Source: Escherichia phage 121Q. Taken from it: a stretch of 64,000 bases of DNA. The stretch lies in sequence record NC_025447.1. One strand, 5' to 3'. The notes beneath the pieces are model-generated. The model was not told the origin of the DNA and ran no database searches. It saw only the letters and a program-made list of their open reading frames with translations. A program made the translations under genes and the position numbers. This document shows positions 10,781 through 60,462 of this stretch, piece by piece; positions within the stretch are counted from its first letter, which is position 1; each line of letters begins with the position of its first letter.

Positions 10781-12124
10781 TTATTTGTCAGTGAAAGTTA
10801 TTTTCCAATATCCCTGACGATACACAGGCATGATACTTTTATGCCATTTAAATTTGTCATTATATCTATAATAACCATTGTCTTCTTTATTATAAATGTA
10901 ATTTCGTACAGTAGATGGATCAATTAATTGTGCACCATCATTTGTAATTTTAAACAAATAATTTGATGGGATTTCGGTTTCTTTATAAATGATGTTATGT
11001 ATACTGTTATTTACATAATATTGTTCAGGTAATGCACTTGAAAGTACTGAATCTTTCTGCACAAACCCATGTATAGTGTAATCAACAGTATAATTGGTAT
11101 TATCAAGCTGTACTATAATTTTGTTGGCATCTTCATTTTCACCATACGACGCTATATGACCTTTTAGTGGGTTGTCTTCTTCAATAGATTGTTGAAATTT
11201 AATCCCTACTTTTTTGTCATCAAAATTTGGTTCTAGATATTTAAGATATTTTTCCCATGAATATATTCCACCGTTGGGAGAAACCGCAGATAGCGATTGG
11301 CTAACCAAGGTAAGTTGGTATGTATCAGGTAAATTATACTTGGAATTAGTAATTTCTTCAACTTTAATGCATAAATTCTTGGGTGTAAAAACATCTGTTA
11401 TTATATCTGAATAATTTCCCATTTCAAAATCAAATTCGTCACGAGCACCTTTAATATTTGTAGTAATCTGTTGGATTAATTTTGGTTTTTCAACAATAGC
11501 TGGTAAAGAAAACCATATTGTCGTTTCAAATGTTAAAACCATTATATCCAAATCTGGGTCAGTTCCTTGTGGAAAACCACGAGTAGAAAACTGACAATCT
11601 ATTAGTTCAACATCACTAAGCGATGTCCAATCTAACGGGTTATCAGATAATTGAAGTTGTATACTAGGTGCAAACAAAGTTGAGATTTGTTCGAATAATT
11701 CCATTTTAGTTTGAGTTTGAGTTACCCAAATATTCAAATCAAACGTAAAAGTCCAAGGTACTGGGTTATGTCTTACAATTTTGTATTGTGTGTCAAGATC
11801 TTTTGTGTACTCATTAATAGCAGGGGACTTGTTAGACCCCATTACTATAGTTTCGTTGGCATTAGAACGAATATTTTTACGATCCAACTTTAGTTGATTA
11901 ACACTTATGGTCATTATAGGTGCTGATGGGAGAACATTTTCACTATTCCCATTTATAATTGCTGCTGCCATTCTTGAAATATCGGCATAGCGACATGGAA
12001 CCTTTTTGTATTTTGGGTTTCCATTAGCATCAATACCATTTTGTACTTGAAATTCACCAAAAACTCTGATAAGATGTTTCAGTACTCTGCGAAATTGACC
12101 GTCATAATAATAATCTATTTTCAT
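10781..12124 (-). CDS. Hypothetical protein, likely structural
   Basis: 447-aa ORF; 4-nt overlap with the upstream gene suggests translational coupling. Confidence 0.4.
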   Translation of the reverse strand: MKIDYYYDGQFRRVLKHLIRVFGEFQVQNGIDANGNPKYKKVPCRYADISRMAAAIINGNSENVLPSAPIMTISVNQLKLDRKNIRSNANETIVMGSNKSPAINEYTKDLDTQYKIVRHNPVPWTFTFDLNIWVTQTQTKMELFEQISTLFAPSIQLQLSDNPLDWTSLSDVELIDCQFSTRGFPQGTDPDLDIMVLTFETTIWFSLPAIVEKPKLIQQITTNIKGARDEFDFEMGNYSDIITDVFTPKNLCIKVEEITNSKYNLPDTYQLTLVSQSLSAVSPNGGIYSWEKYLKYLEPNFDDKKVGIKFQQSIEEDNPLKGHIASYGENEDANKIIVQLDNTNYTVDYTIHGFVQKDSVLSSALPEQYYVNNSIHNIIYKETEIPSNYLFKITNDGAQLIDPSTVRNYIYNKEDNGYYRYNDKFKWHKSIMPVYRQGYWKITFTDK

Positions 12125-39318: not shown

Positions 39319-41466
39319 ATGCTAAACATTACACGTATATCTATGAGGAACTTCTTTTCATTTGGTAATGCACCACAATCAATTGATTTGAATGGTTCCG
39401 ACATTTCATTAGTACTGGGTCAAAATAATGATGCAGTTATTGAAGGTGGTGACAGTACCGGACGTCGAAATGGTGTAGGGAAAAGTGCTATTATTCAAGG
39501 ATTAGTTTTTGGATTATTTGGTAAAAGTATTGGTAATGATATTAAAATTCCGAACCTAGTCAATAAAACTAATGGCAAAAATTGTGAAGTAGTTGTAGAG
39601 TTTGAAAAAGATGGTGTACAATATCTGGTTGAACGTGGGAGAAGTCCCACGTATTTCAATTTTGTTACTTTAGGGAAAGATAATAAAATTGAAGATGAAT
39701 CAAGGGGAGAAAAGAAAGACACACAAGAAGATTTGAATGAAATTCTTGGTATATCTCAATTATTATTTGAACATATTGTAGTACTGAATGCTAACGTTGA
39801 ACCTTTCTTAGCTTTATCCACACAAAAACAACGTGATATGATAGAAGAACTTCTTGGAATAACACAGTTGACGGAAAAAGCTGAAATGCTAAAGGAGATG
39901 TATAAGGATACTAAACGTTTAGCCGAACAAGAAAAGTTCAAAAATGAAACTGTAGCTGCAAGTAATGAACGTATTCAAAAAAGTATTGAGGCACTACAAG
40001 AACAGGCAAACCAGTTTGAAATTGATAAAAATAATAGAGTATCTAAGTTAAATGAAGAGTTGAATATATATAAAACTTTAGACTTTAATGACCTCTATGA
40101 AGCTGCTGACATAAAAGAGAAAGCTCTTATTCATAACGCAAAGCGTGGTGAAATCGAACGCCGTGTACAAGAGTTGGCTTTAAAATTTGATGCATATGAC
40201 CGTGAACTTGAAAGATCTAAAAGAGCATTAAATCTAAGCATTGATAAGCTAAAAACTATTGATATTAGTGCAGAATTGGAAAATCATAATGAGTTGGAGA
40301 TATGGAAACAGTTAGAGGGTATTCTAAAAGAGAATAATAACCAAAAACGTTTCAAAGAACAAAAACTAAACTCACTAAAAATAGCTTTAAAAGGATATGA
40401 ATGTTCAATTAATGCTGAAATTGACAAATTATCAACAGTTGAAAACAGCAAATGTCCACTTTGTATGTCTGAATTGGAACATAACGAACATACTTCTTCA
40501 ATTAAAGACAAAATCCAAAGTACTATTAATGATCTTCGAGCTAAAATTGATAGTTCTTCTTCTGAAATTGAAACATTACTTCAAGAAATTGATAGTATTG
40601 AGATTTTTGATATGCCACCTAAACCTGTGACATATTATAATACACTTTCGGAAGCACAAATGCATGAACATAAGCTTCAAGAATTGGTCAGAAAGAGTGA
40701 AGAAGAACCAATAAACATCTATGCAAATGAACTTATGTCATCATATGATGAACTTAACTCATATGAACTAATGGAAGTTCCAGATACATTAAACAAATAT
40801 GAAGTTAAAGAGTTAGAAATGACTGTAAATTCATTATCACAGCAATTAGATCGTGAATTGAAGACTACTAACACATTTATTAGCCAAATTAATACTCTGA
40901 AGACTGATTCTTTAGTACCAATCGATTATAGCGACTATAATAATCTTGATAAAATGTCAAATCACCAAGATTTCTTGGTTAAATTACTTTTAAACAAGGA
41001 TTCTTATGTCCGTAAACGTATTATTGAGCAAAATATCTCATATTTGAATACACGTCTCCAGTACTATATCGATATGTGCGGTTCTGAGCATAATGTTGTG
41101 TTTTTGAATGATTTGAGTGTTGAAATTGAGAAGAGTGGACAGTACTTTGACTATAAACAGCTTAGTAGAGGTGAGCGTACAAGGGTAAACATCGCATTAT
41201 CTTGTGCTTTCCGTGATACATATGAGTCATTATACCAAAGTATTAATATTCTTATCATTGATGAGATGATTGACCAAGGTCTTGACTCAAGTGGTGTTCT
41301 ACGTGTGTGGTCTATCTTCCAAGATATGGCTGCTGTACGTGGTAAGAACGTTTATGCTATTTCCCACAGAGAAGAGTTACTATCTAAGACTGAAAAAATC
41401 CTCAAAGTTGTTAAAGAGGACGGTTTCAGTACTGTTGAATATGCAACCCTTGACGATGTTTTCTAA
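39319..41466 (+). CDS. Rad50/SbcC-like ATPase (T4 gp46-like)
   Basis: 715 aa; P-loop GRRNGVGKSA, long coiled-coil middle with CxxC zinc hook (NSKCPLC), signature LSRGERTRVNIALSCA, Walker B ILIIDE. Confidence 0.8.
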   Translation: MLNITRISMRNFFSFGNAPQSIDLNGSDISLVLGQNNDAVIEGGDSTGRRNGVGKSAIIQGLVFGLFGKSIGNDIKIPNLVNKTNGKNCEVVVEFEKDGVQYLVERGRSPTYFNFVTLGKDNKIEDESRGEKKDTQEDLNEILGISQLLFEHIVVLNANVEPFLALSTQKQRDMIEELLGITQLTEKAEMLKEMYKDTKRLAEQEKFKNETVAASNERIQKSIEALQEQANQFEIDKNNRVSKLNEELNIYKTLDFNDLYEAADIKEKALIHNAKRGEIERRVQELALKFDAYDRELERSKRALNLSIDKLKTIDISAELENHNELEIWKQLEGILKENNNQKRFKEQKLNSLKIALKGYECSINAEIDKLSTVENSKCPLCMSELEHNEHTSSIKDKIQSTINDLRAKIDSSSSEIETLLQEIDSIEIFDMPPKPVTYYNTLSEAQMHEHKLQELVRKSEEEPINIYANELMSSYDELNSYELMEVPDTLNKYEVKELEMTVNSLSQQLDRELKTTNTFISQINTLKTDSLVPIDYSDYNNLDKMSNHQDFLVKLLLNKDSYVRKRIIEQNISYLNTRLQYYIDMCGSEHNVVFLNDLSVEIEKSGQYFDYKQLSRGERTRVNIALSCAFRDTYESLYQSINILIIDEMIDQGLDSSGVLRVWSIFQDMAAVRGKNVYAISHREELLSKTEKILKVVKEDGFSTVEYATLDDVF

Positions 41467-41477
41467 TTAAAGATAAA

Positions 41478-41500
41478 GGGAGCCTTAGCTCCCTTTTTTT
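41478..41500 (+). terminator. Rho-independent terminator (between convergent genes)
   Basis: Stem GGGAGC/GCTCCC with CTTA loop (41478-41493) then a T-run; overlaps the stop of the minus-strand gene. Confidence 0.6.
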
Positions 41501-41976
41501 ATATCAACCATATTTAATTTACCGTCCTTAATCAGCTTTCTAGCTTGCTTTACACGAGCAGTAGTGTTACTACCAGGGACAACTCCTAACCCTTCCAGAA
41601 TCGCGTTTTGCTGTGTTGCTGGAAGCCTTTTAAACTTATTAACATCCACAGTTAGTGCAGTGTGATGTATAACTTGTTCATCGTCAGGAATGCTGTTATT
41701 ACGCTCTAAGTAATCAGCAAGATTTCTGAGTACCTCATATAATGGTTTATCAGTTAAGTGCTTCATATATCGATTGAAGCTGTTTTGTACCTTTCCTTCC
41801 CAAGCATTGACTTCATTTTGAAGAACTTGTCTACAATGTTGGTTTCCATAGTGGTAGTGATCCAGTACTGGTTTAGTTATTGGTTCTTTAATTATAGGAT
41901 CTATTCCATTTTGTTTCTTTAGTAATTCGTTTCGATAGTTTGCAGCATCCTTACTATCTTTTAATCTTTTTTTCAT
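41485..41976 (-). CDS. Endonuclease VII-like protein (junction resolvase or homing-endonuclease-like)
   Basis: 163 aa; VLDHYHYGNQHCRQVLQNEVNAWEGKVQNSFNRY resembles the T4 endonuclease VII core (HLDHDHELNG...AAEGQMKHKFNR) as I recall it; minus-strand TATAAATA at 42007-42014 upstream. Confidence 0.5.
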   Translation of the reverse strand: MKKRLKDSKDAANYRNELLKKQNGIDPIIKEPITKPVLDHYHYGNQHCRQVLQNEVNAWEGKVQNSFNRYMKHLTDKPLYEVLRNLADYLERNNSIPDDEQVIHHTALTVDVNKFKRLPATQQNAILEGLGVVPGSNTTARVKQARKLIKDGKLNMVDIKKGS

Positions 41977-42006
41977 AATTCCTCACCAAACTATTTGTTA
42001 TCAAAA

Positions 42007-42014
42007 TATTTATA
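42007..42014 (-). promoter_or_regulatory. T4-type late promoter TATAAATA
   Basis: Minus strand reads TATAAATA about 30 nt upstream of the ATG at 41976. Confidence 0.45.
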
Positions 42015-42067
42015 GATTAGTTATTTGCAATATTTTAAGTACTTAATGAATATTTTTATAAAAATAG

Positions 42068-42096
42068 TGAGACAACTTTAAAGTTTGTGCTATAAT
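42068..42096 (+). promoter_or_regulatory. Sigma70-type promoter (TGAGAC-N17-TATAAT) with no downstream ORF
   Basis: TGAGAC 42068-42073, 17-nt spacer, TGTGCTATAAT with TATAAT at 42091-42096. Confidence 0.5.
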
Positions 42097-42102
42097 GTTT
42101 GT

Positions 42103-42557
42103 TGTAGTAATGACAATCCTGTTGAATGCAGAAATGCATATAAATTAGAACCTGATCCTATCGAAAATGTAGATGGCAGATGAGCAGTTCAACAGTGCGA
42201 TGAGCAAAAGAAACCCGTTAGATGTGGGCATAGTTTGAACCCCTCACGGCAATGCGGCTCAATAAAGAACTCCGATAAGCATACAGAGAGTTCCTCGATA
42301 GACATATAAGGATCGCACCTTACCAGATTTGCTAAGGGAGTTTATTAAGTGATTTTAATAAACAGCCTGAAGTTTGATTGTATAGACTTTCAGGTGAGTG
42401 TCAGGATGATTAAGACTGACGACCGTTGCACATGACTGCGATAGAGAGAAACAGAGCAACCCGCTTTCGTTCTTAATATATTTTTAAGAAATTCGCAATA
42501 CAATAAATGCTGAAACCATCAGCGTCAAGAAATAGAGACTTCATTGTCTCTTTTTTA
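42103..42557 (+). ncRNA. Candidate structured non-coding RNA (~450 nt), function unknown
   Basis: Bracketed by the promoter at 42068-42096 and the terminator at 42534-42557; no ORF of 60 aa or more on either strand; visibly more GC-rich than its surroundings; several local hairpins (CCTGAA/TTCAGG, GTCAG/CTGAC, GTTGC/GCAAC, CCTTA/TAAGG). No tRNA T-loop signature found. Confidence 0.4.
42534..42557 (+). terminator. Rho-independent terminator
   Basis: AGAGAC-TTCATT-GTCTCT followed by TTTTTT. Confidence 0.6.
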
Positions 42558-42773
42558 TTGTCTTCATTCCCCTGCGGGGGGATGAAAATGTCCTCAACAA
42601 ATCCCGTCAAGTATTAAATCTTTTAAAGTTCTTTATAATTAATTTAATTAAATGAATATGAGTTACGTAGTAACGAATATTCTTCAGCTAACGAATGAAA
42701 TGAGTTAGATGAATCCAATAATATTAAAATTAATCCTTTCATAATTCAATTCAAATAATTCTGTAGTTTAAAA

Positions 42774-42801
42774 CCAAAAAAAACCAGCAACAATGTGCTG
42801 G
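42774..42801 (-). terminator. Rho-independent terminator of the minus-strand operon ending at 42813
   Basis: Stem CCAGCA/TGCTGG (42784-42801); the plus-strand A-run 42774-42783 is a T-run on the minus strand. Confidence 0.55.
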
Positions 42802-42812
42802 CTATATGAAAA

Positions 42813-43022
42813 TTAGTGCTTCTCGTTTTGTTTTTTAATTTTTTTATTAAAAGACTTAACTAATAAGTCTCTATCTATTAATGGCATATTAAGGAGTGTT
42901 CCATAGTCAATGTTATCCATATATACAGAACATTCCATTAGTGCATTTTTGATTTCTGACTTATTCAGTTCTATCTCCTTCAGTACTTCTTGTATTTCTT
43001 CAGGAGATGACTGGAGAAGCAT
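42813..43022 (-). CDS. Hypothetical small protein
   Basis: 69-aa ORF with 1-nt overlap to the upstream gene; charged, coiled-coil-like. Confidence 0.35.
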   Translation of the reverse strand: MLLQSSPEEIQEVLKEIELNKSEIKNALMECSVYMDNIDYGTLLNMPLIDRDLLVKSFNKKIKKQNEKH

Positions 43023-43858
43023 TACTCGAAAAAATGACTAGGATCATATTTTAGTCCATCAATTTCCCATTGATGATTACATCCATCACATTCTACTTCC
43101 ATACTATGTGATACTCCAATTTCAAGTACTTCATCCATTTTTTCACGAATTAGTTTAAGTACTCCCTTCGATTGTTGTCCAAGCCATTCATTAATAAATT
43201 CTTTTTCAACTACTTCATCACCATCTGGTGTTATAATTTTTGCAATAACTCCACCGATCATGTCGAAGTTAAGTTGAGCCATGTTTTCAAATACTTCAGA
43301 AAATATTTTTACTTTTTCATCTTTATCAATATCAGCAGTTTCAAGAAACTTAGTCTTCTGTTGCTCACTGAACATGCGTTCAGCAAACGATGAATATTCT
43401 TTCCATGTCAGTGGTCTAAATTCTAAACGGAGTCCATTATCTAAATCAATTGATGGGATTTCTTCAAATGCTTGTGCAGTTTCAAGAAGATATGATAGAT
43501 TACGCTCAAATCGACCTTCTTTTTCACATTCAGGACATACAACGTTAATATCATATGTTTCTTCTTTAGAAGCAACTTTAATAGCAATAAGAAGCATTTC
43601 AACGTCATTTACATACAACTCATCAGCGTCAATTACATTAGGAACACAGTTTTCAATAACACGGGATACTGCATCTCCGTTTAGTAACATATCGGGGGTA
43701 TTAAGTGTCATTTCATCACGTGCACTACGTGCACAAACTCCACATTTGACACCTTTTGGACCTAGAACTCCTTCTTTATAAGGAATAACGCCGTTTGTAA
43801 CTAACTTAGTACTGATCTCTTCAATTTTAGTGTACTTAGCAAGTGGATTCATAGCCAT
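43022..43858 (-). CDS. Hypothetical Cys-rich, probably zinc-binding protein
   Basis: 278 aa with three CxxC pairs (CGVC, CPEC, CDGC); function not assigned. Confidence 0.45.
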   Translation of the reverse strand: MAMNPLAKYTKIEEISTKLVTNGVIPYKEGVLGPKGVKCGVCARSARDEMTLNTPDMLLNGDAVSRVIENCVPNVIDADELYVNDVEMLLIAIKVASKEETYDINVVCPECEKEGRFERNLSYLLETAQAFEEIPSIDLDNGLRLEFRPLTWKEYSSFAERMFSEQQKTKFLETADIDKDEKVKIFSEVFENMAQLNFDMIGGVIAKIITPDGDEVVEKEFINEWLGQQSKGVLKLIREKMDEVLEIGVSHSMEVECDGCNHQWEIDGLKYDPSHFFE

Positions 43859-43988
43859 TTTATTAAATCTCCATGTAATAAATGTGTTTTAGTATTTATA
43901 AGACCAAAAAAGATTAAATTAAACTAATTTTTATATTCTCTATAGTTTCATAAATATTTCTATAATACATCTATTAAAAGGGAATGTT

Positions 43989-46193
43989 ATGGCTGGAAAT
44001 ACAAGTGATTACCTACTCCAGCAGTTGGTTAATCAAACTAAAGATAACAACGATAGTTTGAGTGCTATACGTGAGTTATTGGCTGAAAATATAAAAAATG
44101 ATAGAAAGAAATCCGGTTCTAAAAGTGGAAAACGTAATGGAAGTAATTCATCAAGTACTGGAAACCGTGGCTCTCGAACAAATAACAAAGCTGATGATGG
44201 TAAAGAATTTGGAAAAATATTTAAATCATTATCATCTGAAGTATCGAATGTCGGCAAAACTATGATGAGTACGTCTGCAAACGTTAGCAATGTTGTAAAC
44301 TCACTAGGAATGAGTGCATCTTCATTTGCTGGTTCATTAGCAATGATCCCAGGTCCAGTTGGTGCAGCAGCATCTGCCTTCAAATTGGTTGCTGACGCTG
44401 GTTTAGCAGTTTATAATGTGTTAAATGCACAGCTTGAAGTTTATAATAGAATAAACAGTGCTGGTGTCGCTCTATCTGAAGGTTACGGCTCCATATTAAA
44501 AGGTGCTGGTGCATCAATGATGAGTATTGATGCATTTGGTGAAGCATTACAAACTCATAGTGCCGTTGTTGCACAATTAGATGGTGCATATGGTGATGGT
44601 GTTTCTACATTTGGTAAATTATTGGGTACTGTGCAACAAGCACAAAATCAATTAGGTTTATATGGTGTTTCTCAAAAAACATTAACTGATTTAACTGCAC
44701 GTAATATTAAATTCCAAAAGCAATTTGGTGGAAGAGAAATGTTACGTAGTATGGATCAAGCAAAAAGTACTGAACAGTTTATCATGAGCATGACTAAGTT
44801 CAGTAAAAGCATGGGTGAGTCAGTTGATGCACTATTAAATAAAACACAAAACTTAGATAAATCATTAGACACACGTTCAATGCAAATCGCATTACAAAAC
44901 TATTCTGGATTATCTAGTAAAGCAGCAGTTGCAACATCAAAAGCATTTAACGAAGCGGCTGCCAGTATGGGTGATGCTGGTGCAGATTTTCTACGTTTAA
45001 TTTCACATCGTTTAACTATTGGTGGAGTACCAGATGATTTATTGACTCCAGTACTGAACCAATTTGCTGATTTAGGTGAGAACTTGGTACGTAGTGGTGT
45101 TACTGATTCACAAGAAATTCGCCGTCAACAATTGGAATTTGTTAAAAAGAACAAAGAACTAATAAAGCAAGATTTATTAAATCAGATACAATTAGGAAAC
45201 ACTACGGCAGCAACCTTCAACCAACAACTACTTGATATGGAAGCTGCGATTAATGATCCTAAGAGTCAACCAGCAGATAAACTAACACAATTCACTGATA
45301 GATTCAATAGATGGATTAGTAAAGAATTTACTGAACCATTTAATAAAATGTATGCAGATACACAAAATTCTATTGCGGATTACCTTACTGATATTGCAGA
45401 CCGTACTGATGGTGCATGGGAATTTATCGGAGAGTTAGCACTTGATGGTTTTGGTTTGGTTCCTATTGCGAAAGATGCAGTTGCGTATTTGGATAGGATT
45501 GGTGGTGAGTTTGAGCAGTGGTTAGAAGGGTTAGGTACTGAAATTTTTGGTAGTGGATATAATAAAGTTTCAGAAGCATTTGATAGCTTTATGAATAACC
45601 TAATGGATCTTCCTGGTAAACTTTGGGATTCTGTTAAAGGTTGGTTTGGTGGTTCAGACGACAAAGTAAAAGTAGAAAACAATTCTGTTACCGATGGTGC
45701 AGAAAAAGTTAATAATTATTTTGAAGAAAAAATGAATTCATTTGGTGATTATATTTCTAGTTCATTTGATGGTTTTTTAAAATGGAATTCAAGTAGAAAC
45801 TTTAAACAACCAAAACCCCTTGATGAATCAGTTGCTGAAAAACTTATTAGTAGTGGTCTTGAAAATAAGCCAAGAGCAACTGCGAGAATCGAAAAATCTG
45901 AACATGTTGCACCATATGTTACCATAACTCCAAAAACTTTTGATAAATCAGCATGGGGTCCAAATGAACCACCAATTCAAGCTGAACCGGACGATTATGA
46001 GGCCATGAAAGCGATGATAAATAGTGGTAGTAGTATGGCAAATGCTAATAATAATGCCACAATATCAGAAGACATGAAAGAGTTACTTAAAAAACTTGCT
46101 GATGTTAATGAGCAATCTCTATCTGCTGTGCAACAGACAAATAACTATCTAAGAACTATCTCTGAAAACACTCAAGGTGAGAGAAACAGTTAA
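43989..46193 (+). CDS. Hypothetical virion protein with Gly/Ala/Ser-rich hydrophobic segments
   Basis: 734 aa; basic Ser/Gly-rich N-terminal region, hydrophobic stretch LAMIPGPVGAAASAFKLVADAGLAVYNVL; sits directly upstream of the portal gene. Confidence 0.4.
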   Translation: MAGNTSDYLLQQLVNQTKDNNDSLSAIRELLAENIKNDRKKSGSKSGKRNGSNSSSTGNRGSRTNNKADDGKEFGKIFKSLSSEVSNVGKTMMSTSANVSNVVNSLGMSASSFAGSLAMIPGPVGAAASAFKLVADAGLAVYNVLNAQLEVYNRINSAGVALSEGYGSILKGAGASMMSIDAFGEALQTHSAVVAQLDGAYGDGVSTFGKLLGTVQQAQNQLGLYGVSQKTLTDLTARNIKFQKQFGGREMLRSMDQAKSTEQFIMSMTKFSKSMGESVDALLNKTQNLDKSLDTRSMQIALQNYSGLSSKAAVATSKAFNEAAASMGDAGADFLRLISHRLTIGGVPDDLLTPVLNQFADLGENLVRSGVTDSQEIRRQQLEFVKKNKELIKQDLLNQIQLGNTTAATFNQQLLDMEAAINDPKSQPADKLTQFTDRFNRWISKEFTEPFNKMYADTQNSIADYLTDIADRTDGAWEFIGELALDGFGLVPIAKDAVAYLDRIGGEFEQWLEGLGTEIFGSGYNKVSEAFDSFMNNLMDLPGKLWDSVKGWFGGSDDKVKVENNSVTDGAEKVNNYFEEKMNSFGDYISSSFDGFLKWNSSRNFKQPKPLDESVAEKLISSGLENKPRATARIEKSEHVAPYVTITPKTFDKSAWGPNEPPIQAEPDDYEAMKAMINSGSSMANANNNATISEDMKELLKKLADVNEQSLSAVQQTNNYLRTISENTQGERNS

Positions 46194-60071: not shown

Positions 60072-60360
60072 TATATATAAGCGTATTGGTGAAGTATTAG
60101 AAGGTAATGGTATCATTAATTCTGTACTAGCGTATGATAATGATGAAGAAGTAGTTCTAATTGGTGCGGGTTTTACTCGCACTGGTTCCGTGGAAGTTGA
60201 CGGAGAGATTGCTGATGTTTACACTCTTGTGAAAAAGCGTAAAGTTGTTTTTGTCGATGATGTACATACATTAAAAGACTTGAAAAAATTACGCGATAAA
60301 ATTGGCATGAGTTCTACAATTGATAAGCCTTATCTTCAACGTTGGAATACAAAATACTGA
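60061..60360 (+). CDS. Hypothetical protein
   Basis: 99-aa ORF. Confidence 0.4.
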   Translation: MMSNIYKRIGEVLEGNGIINSVLAYDNDEEVVLIGAGFTRTGSVEVDGEIADVYTLVKKRKVVFVDDVHTLKDLKKLRDKIGMSSTIDKPYLQRWNTKY

Positions 60361-60462
60361 TAAAAAATTGAGACAAGCATCATTTTTGAGATATAATGGT
60401 GCTTGTAGTAATCTTACATAAAAAAACATTTTTGATTAACAAATAAAACGGAGAATTATATA

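Follow-up and report, generated by a model that had tools for sequence, protein, structure and literature searches.

Few large and intricate RNA species are known in bacteria and their phages, and those with a known function (ribosomal RNA, RNase P, transfer-messenger RNA (tmRNA) and the self-splicing introns) are central ones. Others, including OLE, GOLLD and ROOL, are orphans that have recently been found to form unexpected assemblies. GOLLD and ROOL are reported to form RNA-only multimeric cages (bioRxiv 10.1101/2024.12.08.627333). Four 'putative lncRNA' (long non-coding RNA) species, ncRNA001-004, have been defined by RNA sequencing (RNA-seq) in PA5oct, a jumbo phage of Pseudomonas (PMC7318152). 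Here we analyse a stretch of 64,000 nucleotides (nt) of Escherichia phage 121Q (NC_025447.1), hereafter the window, on which all coordinates are given unless another record is named. An earlier note, made from the sequence alone, had proposed that an interval of this window devoid of open reading frames (ORFs) is the gene of an undescribed structured non-coding RNA with its own promoter, and had named a covariance-model search and covariation in homologous loci as checks. We find that the interval almost certainly belongs to a genuine family of structured non-coding RNA. We further think it likely that 42068 to ~42617, together with an associated element that extends to 42716, is a large RNA gene whose product stands alone and acts in trans.

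Conservation, covariation and lack of coding capacity

More than 60 homologous loci retain the promoter and the whole ORF-free stretch, and conservation of the region is well above that of the intergenic DNA around it. RNAalifold applied to a MAFFT alignment of 21 diverse members (A1) gave 57 base pairs, 37 of them with compensatory double substitutions. The model was extended by hand and by a covariation scan over 45 non-redundant sequences, leading to a final structure of 119 pairs arranged as ~20 helices and four pseudoknots. The scored model comprises P1, P3-P9, P11, P12, P14-P18, an optional terminator stem and the pseudoknots PK1-PK4, while the variable hairpin P10, recognized by inspection, lies outside it. 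Double-sided changes occur in 80 of the 119 pairs.

The 119-pair model was scored on an alignment to which it had not been fitted. Standard pairs occupy 83.9% of the cells, compared with 67.6 ± 0.6% in shuffles, none of 500 of which reaches the value of the model, and 39-42% when the model is slid by 1-3 columns. The covariation score is 0.42, compared with 0.16 after shuffling and no more than 0.10 after sliding by 1-3 columns. The 45-sequence alignment gives the same structural support. Pairing reaches 96-100% in PK3, P14, P15, P12 and PK4, where several types of pair occur. P1, P6 and P17 are weakly supported; P1 and P17 are variable hairpins that are out of register in the MAFFT alignment. 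The helix cells contain 354 G-U appositions but only 118 A-C, which indicates that the plus strand is the strand that folds. Folding yields a minimum free energy of -114.9 kcal/mol (z = -2.97), a value that none of 100 shuffles matches. Invariant unpaired motifs include GAAAATGTA, GATGAG, CACGGCAAUGCGGC, CUAAGGGAG and GAGAAAC.

As a working definition of the family we have taken the motif GACCGT..GAAAC.G....ACCCGC along with PK3, P14 and P15, and in addition AAGGGAG, the kissing interaction of P11 and PK4, and the G-run of P18 with its CCCGTCA tail. The window copy has these features. Its scores are 467 bits with the family profile hidden Markov model (HMM) and 101 bits (E = 7e-20) with the covariance model R1, for which the 3′ core (42400-42504) was used. 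All helices of the family model are present in the window, at the coordinates listed below.

The 836-bp gap between the neighbouring genes (41977-42812) contains no ORF of 60 amino acids (aa) or more on either strand, as the earlier note had said for the interval; the maximum length is 45 aa on the minus and 38 aa on the plus strand. The G+C content is 0.38-0.42 within the region, compared with 0.23-0.28 in its immediate flanks. The region is therefore GC-rich relative to those flanks, as had been noticed before, and its level resembles that of neighbouring coding DNA. A recurrent ORF beginning MADE.. starts at 42173, and its length varies from 2 to 46 aa as the frame is shifted by insertions and deletions between members; 7 of 45 sequences lack its ATG, and the ORF has no Shine-Dalgarno sequence. 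The idea of a conserved micro-ORF was rejected because none is conserved in frame, and the absence of a convincing small gene that had been remarked upon is thus borne out.

The covariance-model search matched no family. At gathering thresholds none of the 4227 models of Rfam 15 (a set that includes GOLLD, ROOL, OLE, HEARO, raiA, RNase P, tmRNA, 6S, the signal recognition particle (SRP) RNA, introns, riboswitches and self-cleaving ribozymes) matched anywhere in the window or in eight other member loci. Raising the limit to E = 10 over 41950-42850 gave only weak chance matches of a small-RNA or terminator-like kind, the best of them (E = 0.027) falling outside the element and on the opposite strand. 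ARAGORN found no tRNA or tmRNA in the window, in agreement with the earlier failure to see a cloverleaf, and all seven tRNA genes of a related genome are at least 12 kb from any copy. No description of the element was found in the literature on phAPEC6, fEgEco12, CBB, Sharanji, PA5oct or structured RNA species of jumbo phages, the set of candidates predicted from IMG/VR (PMC10690425) being uncompared. The proposal of an undescribed structured RNA is thus supported by conservation, by covariation in homologous loci, by the non-coding pattern and by the lack of an Rfam match.

Architecture of the predicted transcription unit

The structured core is the region matched by nhmmer and the covariance model. 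It extends from 42103 to 42617 on the plus strand (~515 nt, including an optional terminator insertion), and all the elements described in this section are on that strand. CTGTTGA (42119-25) pairs with TCAACAG (42189-95) in the loop of P4 to form PK1, which is 77% paired with double changes in 4 of 6 pairs. The poorly aligned P1 hairpin (42126-39) has a GAAA loop. The P3 hairpin (42152-79; 86% paired, double changes in 7 of 8 pairs) has the conserved loop GAAAATGTA. P4 (GCA 42184-86 with TGC 42196-98; 95% paired) is formed around the 3′ strand of PK1. P5 (TGAGC 42201-05 with GCTCA 42257-61; 93% paired, double changes in 4 of 5 pairs) encloses both P7 (CCGT 42215-18 with ACGG 42246-49), which is 93% paired and near-invariant, and P6 (GGG 42226-28 with CCC 42240-42), which is 67% paired. 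The P8 hairpin (GAACTC 42267-72 with GAGTTC 42288-93) is 88-90% paired with double changes in all pairs, and AGCA in its loop (42278-81) is paired with TGCT (42330-33) to form PK2 (84% paired, double changes in 3 of 4 pairs). The P9 hairpin (42307-22) is followed by the invariant single-stranded CUAAGGGAG (42332-40), within which AAGGGAG is invariant in A1. We note that CUAAGGGAG resembles a Shine-Dalgarno sequence, and that in the window a GTG located 8 nt after it opens a 28-aa ORF (42349-42435) that is not conserved in other members.

The variable P10 hairpin occupies 42341-42362. An optional hairpin module with the loop TACAATATAG is often inserted here, and many members have it at P10 and/or P16. 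Its loop has the form TACAA(T/G)A(T/A)AG and its stem ends in ..ATCCGTC; there are two such modules in paralog b (L013 8058-8648) and two in the copy from E. coli (L344 7225-7265 and 7385-7420). The TACAAT of the inserted module does not covary with the P11 loop.

P11 is a 13-bp hairpin (42364-42395; 89% paired, double changes in 10 of 12 pairs). Its loop sequence ATTGTA (42377-82) is paired with TACAAT (42499-42504) to form PK4, which is 96% paired with double changes in 5 of 6 pairs. PK4 emerged from the covariation scans; for example, one pair is UA in 13 sequences and CG in 7, and another is GC in 15 and AU in 5. P12 (GTCAG 42400-04 with CTGAC 42416-20) is 98% paired. PK3 is made by GTTGC (42425-29) and GCAAC (42456-60), the latter located in the loop of P15, and is 100% paired. 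P14 (TGCGA 42437-41 with TCGCA 42493-97) is 97% paired with double changes in 4 of 5 pairs, and P15 (GAGAG 42444-48 with CTTTC 42464-68) is 100% paired. These are followed by the P16 hairpin (42470-90) and the P17 hairpin (ATGCTGA 42507-13 with TCAGCGT 42519-25). P17 was found in all members on inspection by hand, and its column score is only 39% because the register of the hairpin varies between clades.

The promoter described in the earlier note (TGAGAC-N17-TATAAT) was found where it had been placed, and is conserved across the homologous loci. The upstream box in the -35 region is TGAGACA (42068-42074), of which the hexamer TGAGAC occupies 42068-42073, and the extended -10 box is TGTGCTATAAT (42086-42096), with TATAAT at 42091-96 preceded by TGTGC. 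The hexamers are separated by 17 nt. The site scores 10 out of 12 with an extended -10 TG, and is the best promoter-like site within 41000-44000. The promoter scan is not by itself enriched (15 sites where 13.7 are expected), yet the conservation in more than 60 loci indicates more than chance. The predicted start of transcription is near 42103.

In the family as a whole the upstream box has the consensus TGGAAC(A/G), with the variants TGAAAC and TGGGAC, and TGnTATAAT is near-invariant. A box of the TGGAAC(A/G) type followed ~14-15 nt later by TGnTATAAT is seen across 36 representatives, and among the 42 with a canonical -10 the box keeps its distance from it in 36. Phages CBB and GAP32 have a 'divergent RpoD-like' class of promoter with the -35 sequence TGAAACG, found mostly upstream of genes for DNA synthesis (Buttimer et al., PMC5259590), and the promoter of the RNA family matches this class as described for CBB. 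The copy in an E. coli genomic island has the upstream box TGGGAT and the extended -10 TGTGATATAAT, while that in a prophage of Silvania has TGAAACA and a -10 of TATACT without an adjacent TG. Since the upstream box is retained in these bacterial copies, it is plausible that unmodified host RNA polymerase could use the promoter. Elsewhere in the window, a stretch of 54 nt at 60360-60412 is 76% identical to the promoter region 42058-42111, and is probably another promoter of the TGnnAC..TGnTATAAT class.

The hairpin AGAGAC-TTCATT-GTCTCT (42534-42551) followed by TTTTTT (42552-42557) has the form of an intrinsic terminator, with a weak 6-bp stem. The earlier note had located it correctly but had taken it as the end of the unit, and this second part does not hold, since conservation continues to ~42617 and then from 42651 to 42716. 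The terminator is missing from paralogs c and d, and from XbC2, mg023 and mg106, while every member conserves the sequence to either side of it; this marks it as an optional insertion within the unit. In the copies that have it, the stem shows covariation and 98.5% pairing. It is not listed in the ARNOLD annotation of the G17 record. In paralog group c (L014 ~11990-12044; also L019, L106, L203, L213 and L202) a different strong hairpin with a U-run is found directly after the -10 box; it is terminator-like, and stands ahead of the body of the RNA.

Beyond the terminator is P18, a hairpin formed by TTCATTCCCC (42563-72) and GGGGGATGAA (42577-86). It is 85% paired, and 8 of its 10 pairs vary on the C side only; the G-run is nearly invariant and the C-strand drifts through G-U intermediates. 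It is followed by the conserved 3′ tail CCTCAACAAATCCCGTCAAGTATTAA (42592-617). The sequence CGTCAAG occurs as a direct repeat (42523-29 and 42605-11), and in RaK2 both copies are changed together to CTTCAAG. No proven pairing partner was found for the repeat; pairing with the P11 loop was considered and dropped, because that loop pairs with TACAAT in PK4. Helices that might close the 5′ and 3′ ends (TGA with TCA, or GCGG 42254-57 with CCGT 42604-07) were also rejected, as too short or too invariant.

A further conserved element (42651-42716) begins ~35 nt beyond the tail and is kept in both phage and prophage copies. Within it the stem GAATAT (42654-59) with ATATTC (42677-82) encloses the hairpin GTTAC-GTA-GTAAC (42662-74), and hairpin B, formed by CTAAC (42688-92) and GTTAG (42704-08), covaries (AT 19, TA 10, GC 5 and GT 3). 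The 6-mers CGAAGT, ACGAAG and AACGAA are enriched 13-17 fold in the element. The element appears to be associated with the RNA gene, and may share the transcript of the core. No gene follows directly after it in the window or in the prophages.

Distribution of the family and its possible role

By blastn, ~70 phage records match the region with identity down to 66%, and all are Rak2-like jumbo myoviruses. Their hosts are Escherichia, Salmonella, Klebsiella, Erwinia, Yersinia, Serratia, Pectobacterium, Cronobacter and Xanthomonas, and each record has 2-5 separate matching places. The region is unannotated in most of them. In a few (PQ390715, PP886230, PQ330092, OR699181-88, PQ464590 and others) 2-3 short coding sequences (CDS) for 'hypothetical proteins' are placed over the RNA; as there is no conserved ORF these are most likely spurious. 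The window is 99.5-100% identical to Asteriusvirus jumbo coliphages such as vB_EcoM_G17, PBECO4, Sharanji and phAPEC6. In the unannotated Asteriusvirus record OR844650.1, 350 of 352 kb of which was covered, there are four copies (a-d) with 65-72% mutual identity, all on one strand and each with its own promoter. Both the profile HMM (nhmmer) and R1 find exactly these four, and a single one in the window, which is copy a; the only other similarity within the window is the promoter at 60360-60412. Degenerate-pattern scans for the most conserved block, filtered by nhmmer, gave 54 true copies in IMG/VR, at 2-5 per genome of 345-378 kb, and at least 15 true members among the 120 pattern matches listed for metagenome contigs.

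The position of copy a, between endonuclease VII and a small gene followed by the baseplate hub, is kept in CBB, BF and Hallingskeid, and in Munch only the baseplate side of the arrangement is seen. Copies c and d correspond to two different loci of RaK2 with homologous flanking genes. Since the syntenic loci of the paralogs are conserved across genera, the paralogs predate the split of these genera. The proteins encoded beside paralogs a-d are unrelated and are conserved only between orthologous loci, so that no shared neighbouring protein partner is found.

In the window the gap containing the RNA is flanked by the gene for endonuclease VII (41485-41976, minus strand) and, on its other side, by a gene of 69 aa and then the baseplate-hub gene (42813-43858, minus strand). 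The surrounding modules comprise recombination genes (SbcCD-like and endonuclease VII) and baseplate or structural genes. The earlier description of the locus as lying between recombination and head modules is thus right for the recombination side, while the other side is baseplate and structural and not head as such. A bidirectional terminator is located between the SbcC-like and endonuclease VII genes (41475-41496), and the minus-strand terminator of the 69-aa gene (42782-42803) points toward the RNA locus. OR844650 and OR845138 have an extra ORF of 323 aa (MRYTRMAKITQQQF...) inserted between endonuclease VII and the promoter of the RNA; it is absent from the window, and has the appearance of a free-standing mobile gene.

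The family is also found outside jumbo phages. The pattern scan of bacterial genomes gave at least one true member among the matches listed, on a 185-kb contig of Silvania hatchlandensis; this locus has no protein similarity to the Asteriusvirus genome. It is in a prophage, where a large serine recombinase (integrase) is encoded immediately upstream in the same orientation, followed by the RNA and then by a convergent CI-type S24 repressor. The same order of integrase, RNA and CI is present on metagenome contig L112, where a bacterial gene for a type II secretion ATPase adjoins it. A full-length copy is present in 2 of 5,426 complete E. coli genomes (nhmmer E = 1e-122). It is located in an unannotated 1.4-kb gap of a ~10-kb island between ffs, the gene for the SRP RNA, which the island adjoins, and ybaA. 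The island also has integrase remnants, an IS3 element, a recombinase and, in strain LR-29-1 (NZ_AP027515.1; fragment L344, 9996-11727), the candidate defence system PDC-M45 (dual-OB, DUF488, DUF4326). R1, built without the prophage and island copies, scores them with E = 1e-14 to 1e-23. Plasmids gave no match to the element. The counts from metagenomes and genomes are lower bounds and most pattern matches arise by chance, so the spread outside jumbo phages is underestimated.

We propose that the product is a stand-alone folded RNA that would act in trans through its three-dimensional shape, by binding a partner, by assembly or by catalysis, and that it would neither code for a peptide nor regulate a particular downstream gene. 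Two observations point to stand-alone action: the genes that follow are convergent, lacking or unrelated, and the fold as a whole is under selection. Convergent genes follow the RNA in the window and the prophages, and the genes downstream of other copies are mutually unrelated, including one that is ADP-ribosylglycohydrolase-like (by its N-terminal motif), one that is methyltransferase-like and genes of unknown function. The hairpin and T-run at 42534-57 would act as a partial terminator, so that the unit probably yields coexisting short and long forms of the RNA. The RNA travels as accessory cargo of unrelated mobile elements, and may take part in conflict between phage and host or between elements. 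This role, which we advance tentatively, is put forward because the RNA is found in jumbo phages, in a defence island, and in prophages at a site flanked by integrase and repressor genes. The retention of old copies in each 350-kb genome, and the sharing of the family among virulent phages, prophages and a defence island, would likewise point to a selectable activity in conflict between element and host. More speculative still, and perhaps doubtful, is the idea of a new ornate RNA machine of mobile elements, ~500 nt in length with four pseudoknots and without a dedicated adjacent protein gene. The 2-5 paralogs of a jumbo phage might then be non-redundant subunits or specificity variants, forming a homo- or hetero-oligomeric RNA assembly, or might serve as a ribozyme or as a decoy, countering or mimicking a defence of the host; in prophages and the island the one copy present would provide the same activity on behalf of its carrier.

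A number of points weigh against this proposal. The 5′ and 3′ ends of the RNA are predictions, and genomic location, which suggests the role in conflict, is the sole basis for it. In several paralogs a gene with a ribosome-binding site starts directly after the downstream element, without a visible promoter of its own, which indicates that at least those copies are also long 5′ leaders. The literature search turned up no RNA-seq study of these phage genera. Lastly, 10,006 unnamed candidates for structured RNAs were predicted from IMG/VR (PMC10690425), and the family may be among them.

Could all copies be cis-acting? The RNA would then be a giant leader, a riboswitch or attenuator whose fold senses a signal, sets the read-through of the terminator at 42534-57 and so controls a downstream gene, perhaps by way of the downstream element, whose hairpin B can hold the Shine-Dalgarno sequence. 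The terminator does indeed lie inside the conserved unit, though it is weak and optional. In some paralogs the loop of hairpin B is GGAG, directly followed by ATG, and some copies that lack the terminator continue straight into genes on the same strand. Paralog group c has its second terminator-like hairpin directly after the promoter. Between core and terminator no alternative pairing was identified. However, the genes downstream of the paralogs are unrelated, and for the copy in the window, the two in prophages and that in the E. coli island they are convergent or absent; we have therefore rejected a leader of one gene class. No riboswitch or leader family of Rfam matches. To our knowledge, a 500-nt fold with four pseudoknots is far beyond any known expression platform. 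We regard a general leader function as improbable.

A ribozyme, or a selfish element derived from one, is compatible with stand-alone action and does not exclude it, and we consider it decidedly unlikely. Such an RNA would process itself, for example at the CGTCA(A/G) repeats that flank P18, and spread as a mobile element. The complexity of the fold and the invariant junction nucleotides are typical of catalytic RNA, in RaK2 the two copies of the direct repeat have changed in concert, a hairpin module is found at more than one position inside the RNA, and the family is present in unrelated mobile elements that have no flanking genes in common. Yet no model of a group I or group II intron or a self-cleaving ribozyme matches with E up to 10, no host gene is interrupted and the flanks show no exon-like conservation. 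The paralogs are old and syntenic and not recent copies, and there is neither an associated reverse transcriptase nor a consistently adjacent endonuclease. A group I intron was rejected because there is no match to RF00028 at E up to 10, the flanks are promoter and intergenic DNA, and the order of helices differs; a group II intron was rejected because RF00029 does not match and there is no ORF for a reverse transcriptase in or near the element.

Still less likely, in our view, is a primer for replication of the type of ColE1 RNA II or of T4 oriF and oriG, where the RNA would form an RNA-DNA hybrid at the G-run and AT-rich DNA, at several dispersed origins. The size is close to that of RNA II (~550 nt), the GGGGGG run does not vary whereas the strand it pairs with drifts, and the downstream DNA is AT-rich with repeated ACGAAG motifs. 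There are 2-5 dispersed copies with the same orientation in genomes of ~350 kb that encode a T4-like replisome, and the corresponding promoter class of CBB is mainly upstream of genes for DNA synthesis (PMC5259590). By contrast, such an origin would be unexpected for single copies between integrase and CI in temperate prophages, or in a small integrative island, and these copies weigh most against the idea. GC skew tracks the direction of transcription over most of the genome and gives no support at the four copies; the one reversal that falls near any copy, at ~130 kb beside copy a, is uninformative because gene orientation changes there. The covariation in ~20 helices and four pseudoknots indicates selection on the full three-dimensional fold.

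That the region encodes small proteins or a micropeptide is scarcely credible: short CDS are annotated in several GenBank records and the ORF beginning MADE.. recurs, but its length and frame are inconstant, its ATG is not always present, and substitutions track base pairing and not codons.

If the RNA-machine reading of a stand-alone RNA is true, this would be the first such orphan large RNA that is genetically tractable in the standard model host E. coli. Its carriers include culturable jumbo phages of E. coli, Salmonella and Klebsiella, at least two strains of E. coli, and prophages, so that knock-outs, probing, pull-downs and cryo-electron microscopy are directly feasible. Several of the carrier phages have been isolated or proposed as therapeutic candidates (e.g. 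EJP2 and JP4), and current records leave the RNA loci blank or fill them with spurious 'hypothetical proteins'.

Comparison with known systems

Judged by sequence, the RNA appears to match no described family; it is without relative among the Rfam families, the uncompared candidates of PMC10690425 being set apart.

It resembles riboswitches and long 5′ leaders in having a structured domain followed by an intrinsic terminator and, in some copies, a hairpin with a Shine-Dalgarno sequence. It differs in that no consistent gene is found downstream, several copies have nothing downstream, and the terminator is optional. The group I and II introns that are common in T4-like phage genomes are likewise large, pseudoknotted RNAs. 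However, the strand order here is PK3-P14-P15-PK3′-P15′-P16-P14′, which is not the P3-P7 arrangement of group I, and the new RNA has a promoter of its own, interrupts no gene and has no intron match in Rfam. With ColE1 RNA II and T4 oriF and oriG it shares the character of a promoter-driven, structured and untranslated transcript of ~500 nt (as predicted here) with a G-run; shared features are also the several copies per phage genome and a promoter class tied to replication genes. Unlike these, it is found in prophage lysogeny modules and a defence island, and has a more elaborate conserved tertiary pairing.

PA5oct is distantly related to the Rak2-like group, and its four ORF-free transcribed regions, of 236-619 nt with two very abundant, are similar in kind. 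The 3′ end of ncRNA004 has a C-run/G-run hairpin followed by a CCCG tail (..CCGCCCGAATATCA), in the manner of P18 and the 3′ tail. Homology to ncRNA001-004 was sought and rejected; nhmmer --max gave no match on the correct strand, and with filters off the best E value of R1 was 1.6, off target.

The closest analogy is with GOLLD and ROOL, and more loosely with OLE and raiA. These too are RNAs of ~500-800 nt with many helices and pseudoknots and strong covariation. Like GOLLD and ROOL the new RNA is borne by phages and prophages, is an independent transcription unit (here predicted), and has no known biochemical function. Yet the new family has neither sequence nor structure match to their Rfam models. 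GOLLD and ROOL occur in Firmicutes, or in lake and rumen bacteria, whereas the new family is found in Enterobacteria and their jumbo phages; it is not beside tRNA genes, and has several diverged paralogs per genome. The analogy is therefore one of kind and not of sequence. The possible role in conflict resembles what is suspected for GOLLD and ROOL.

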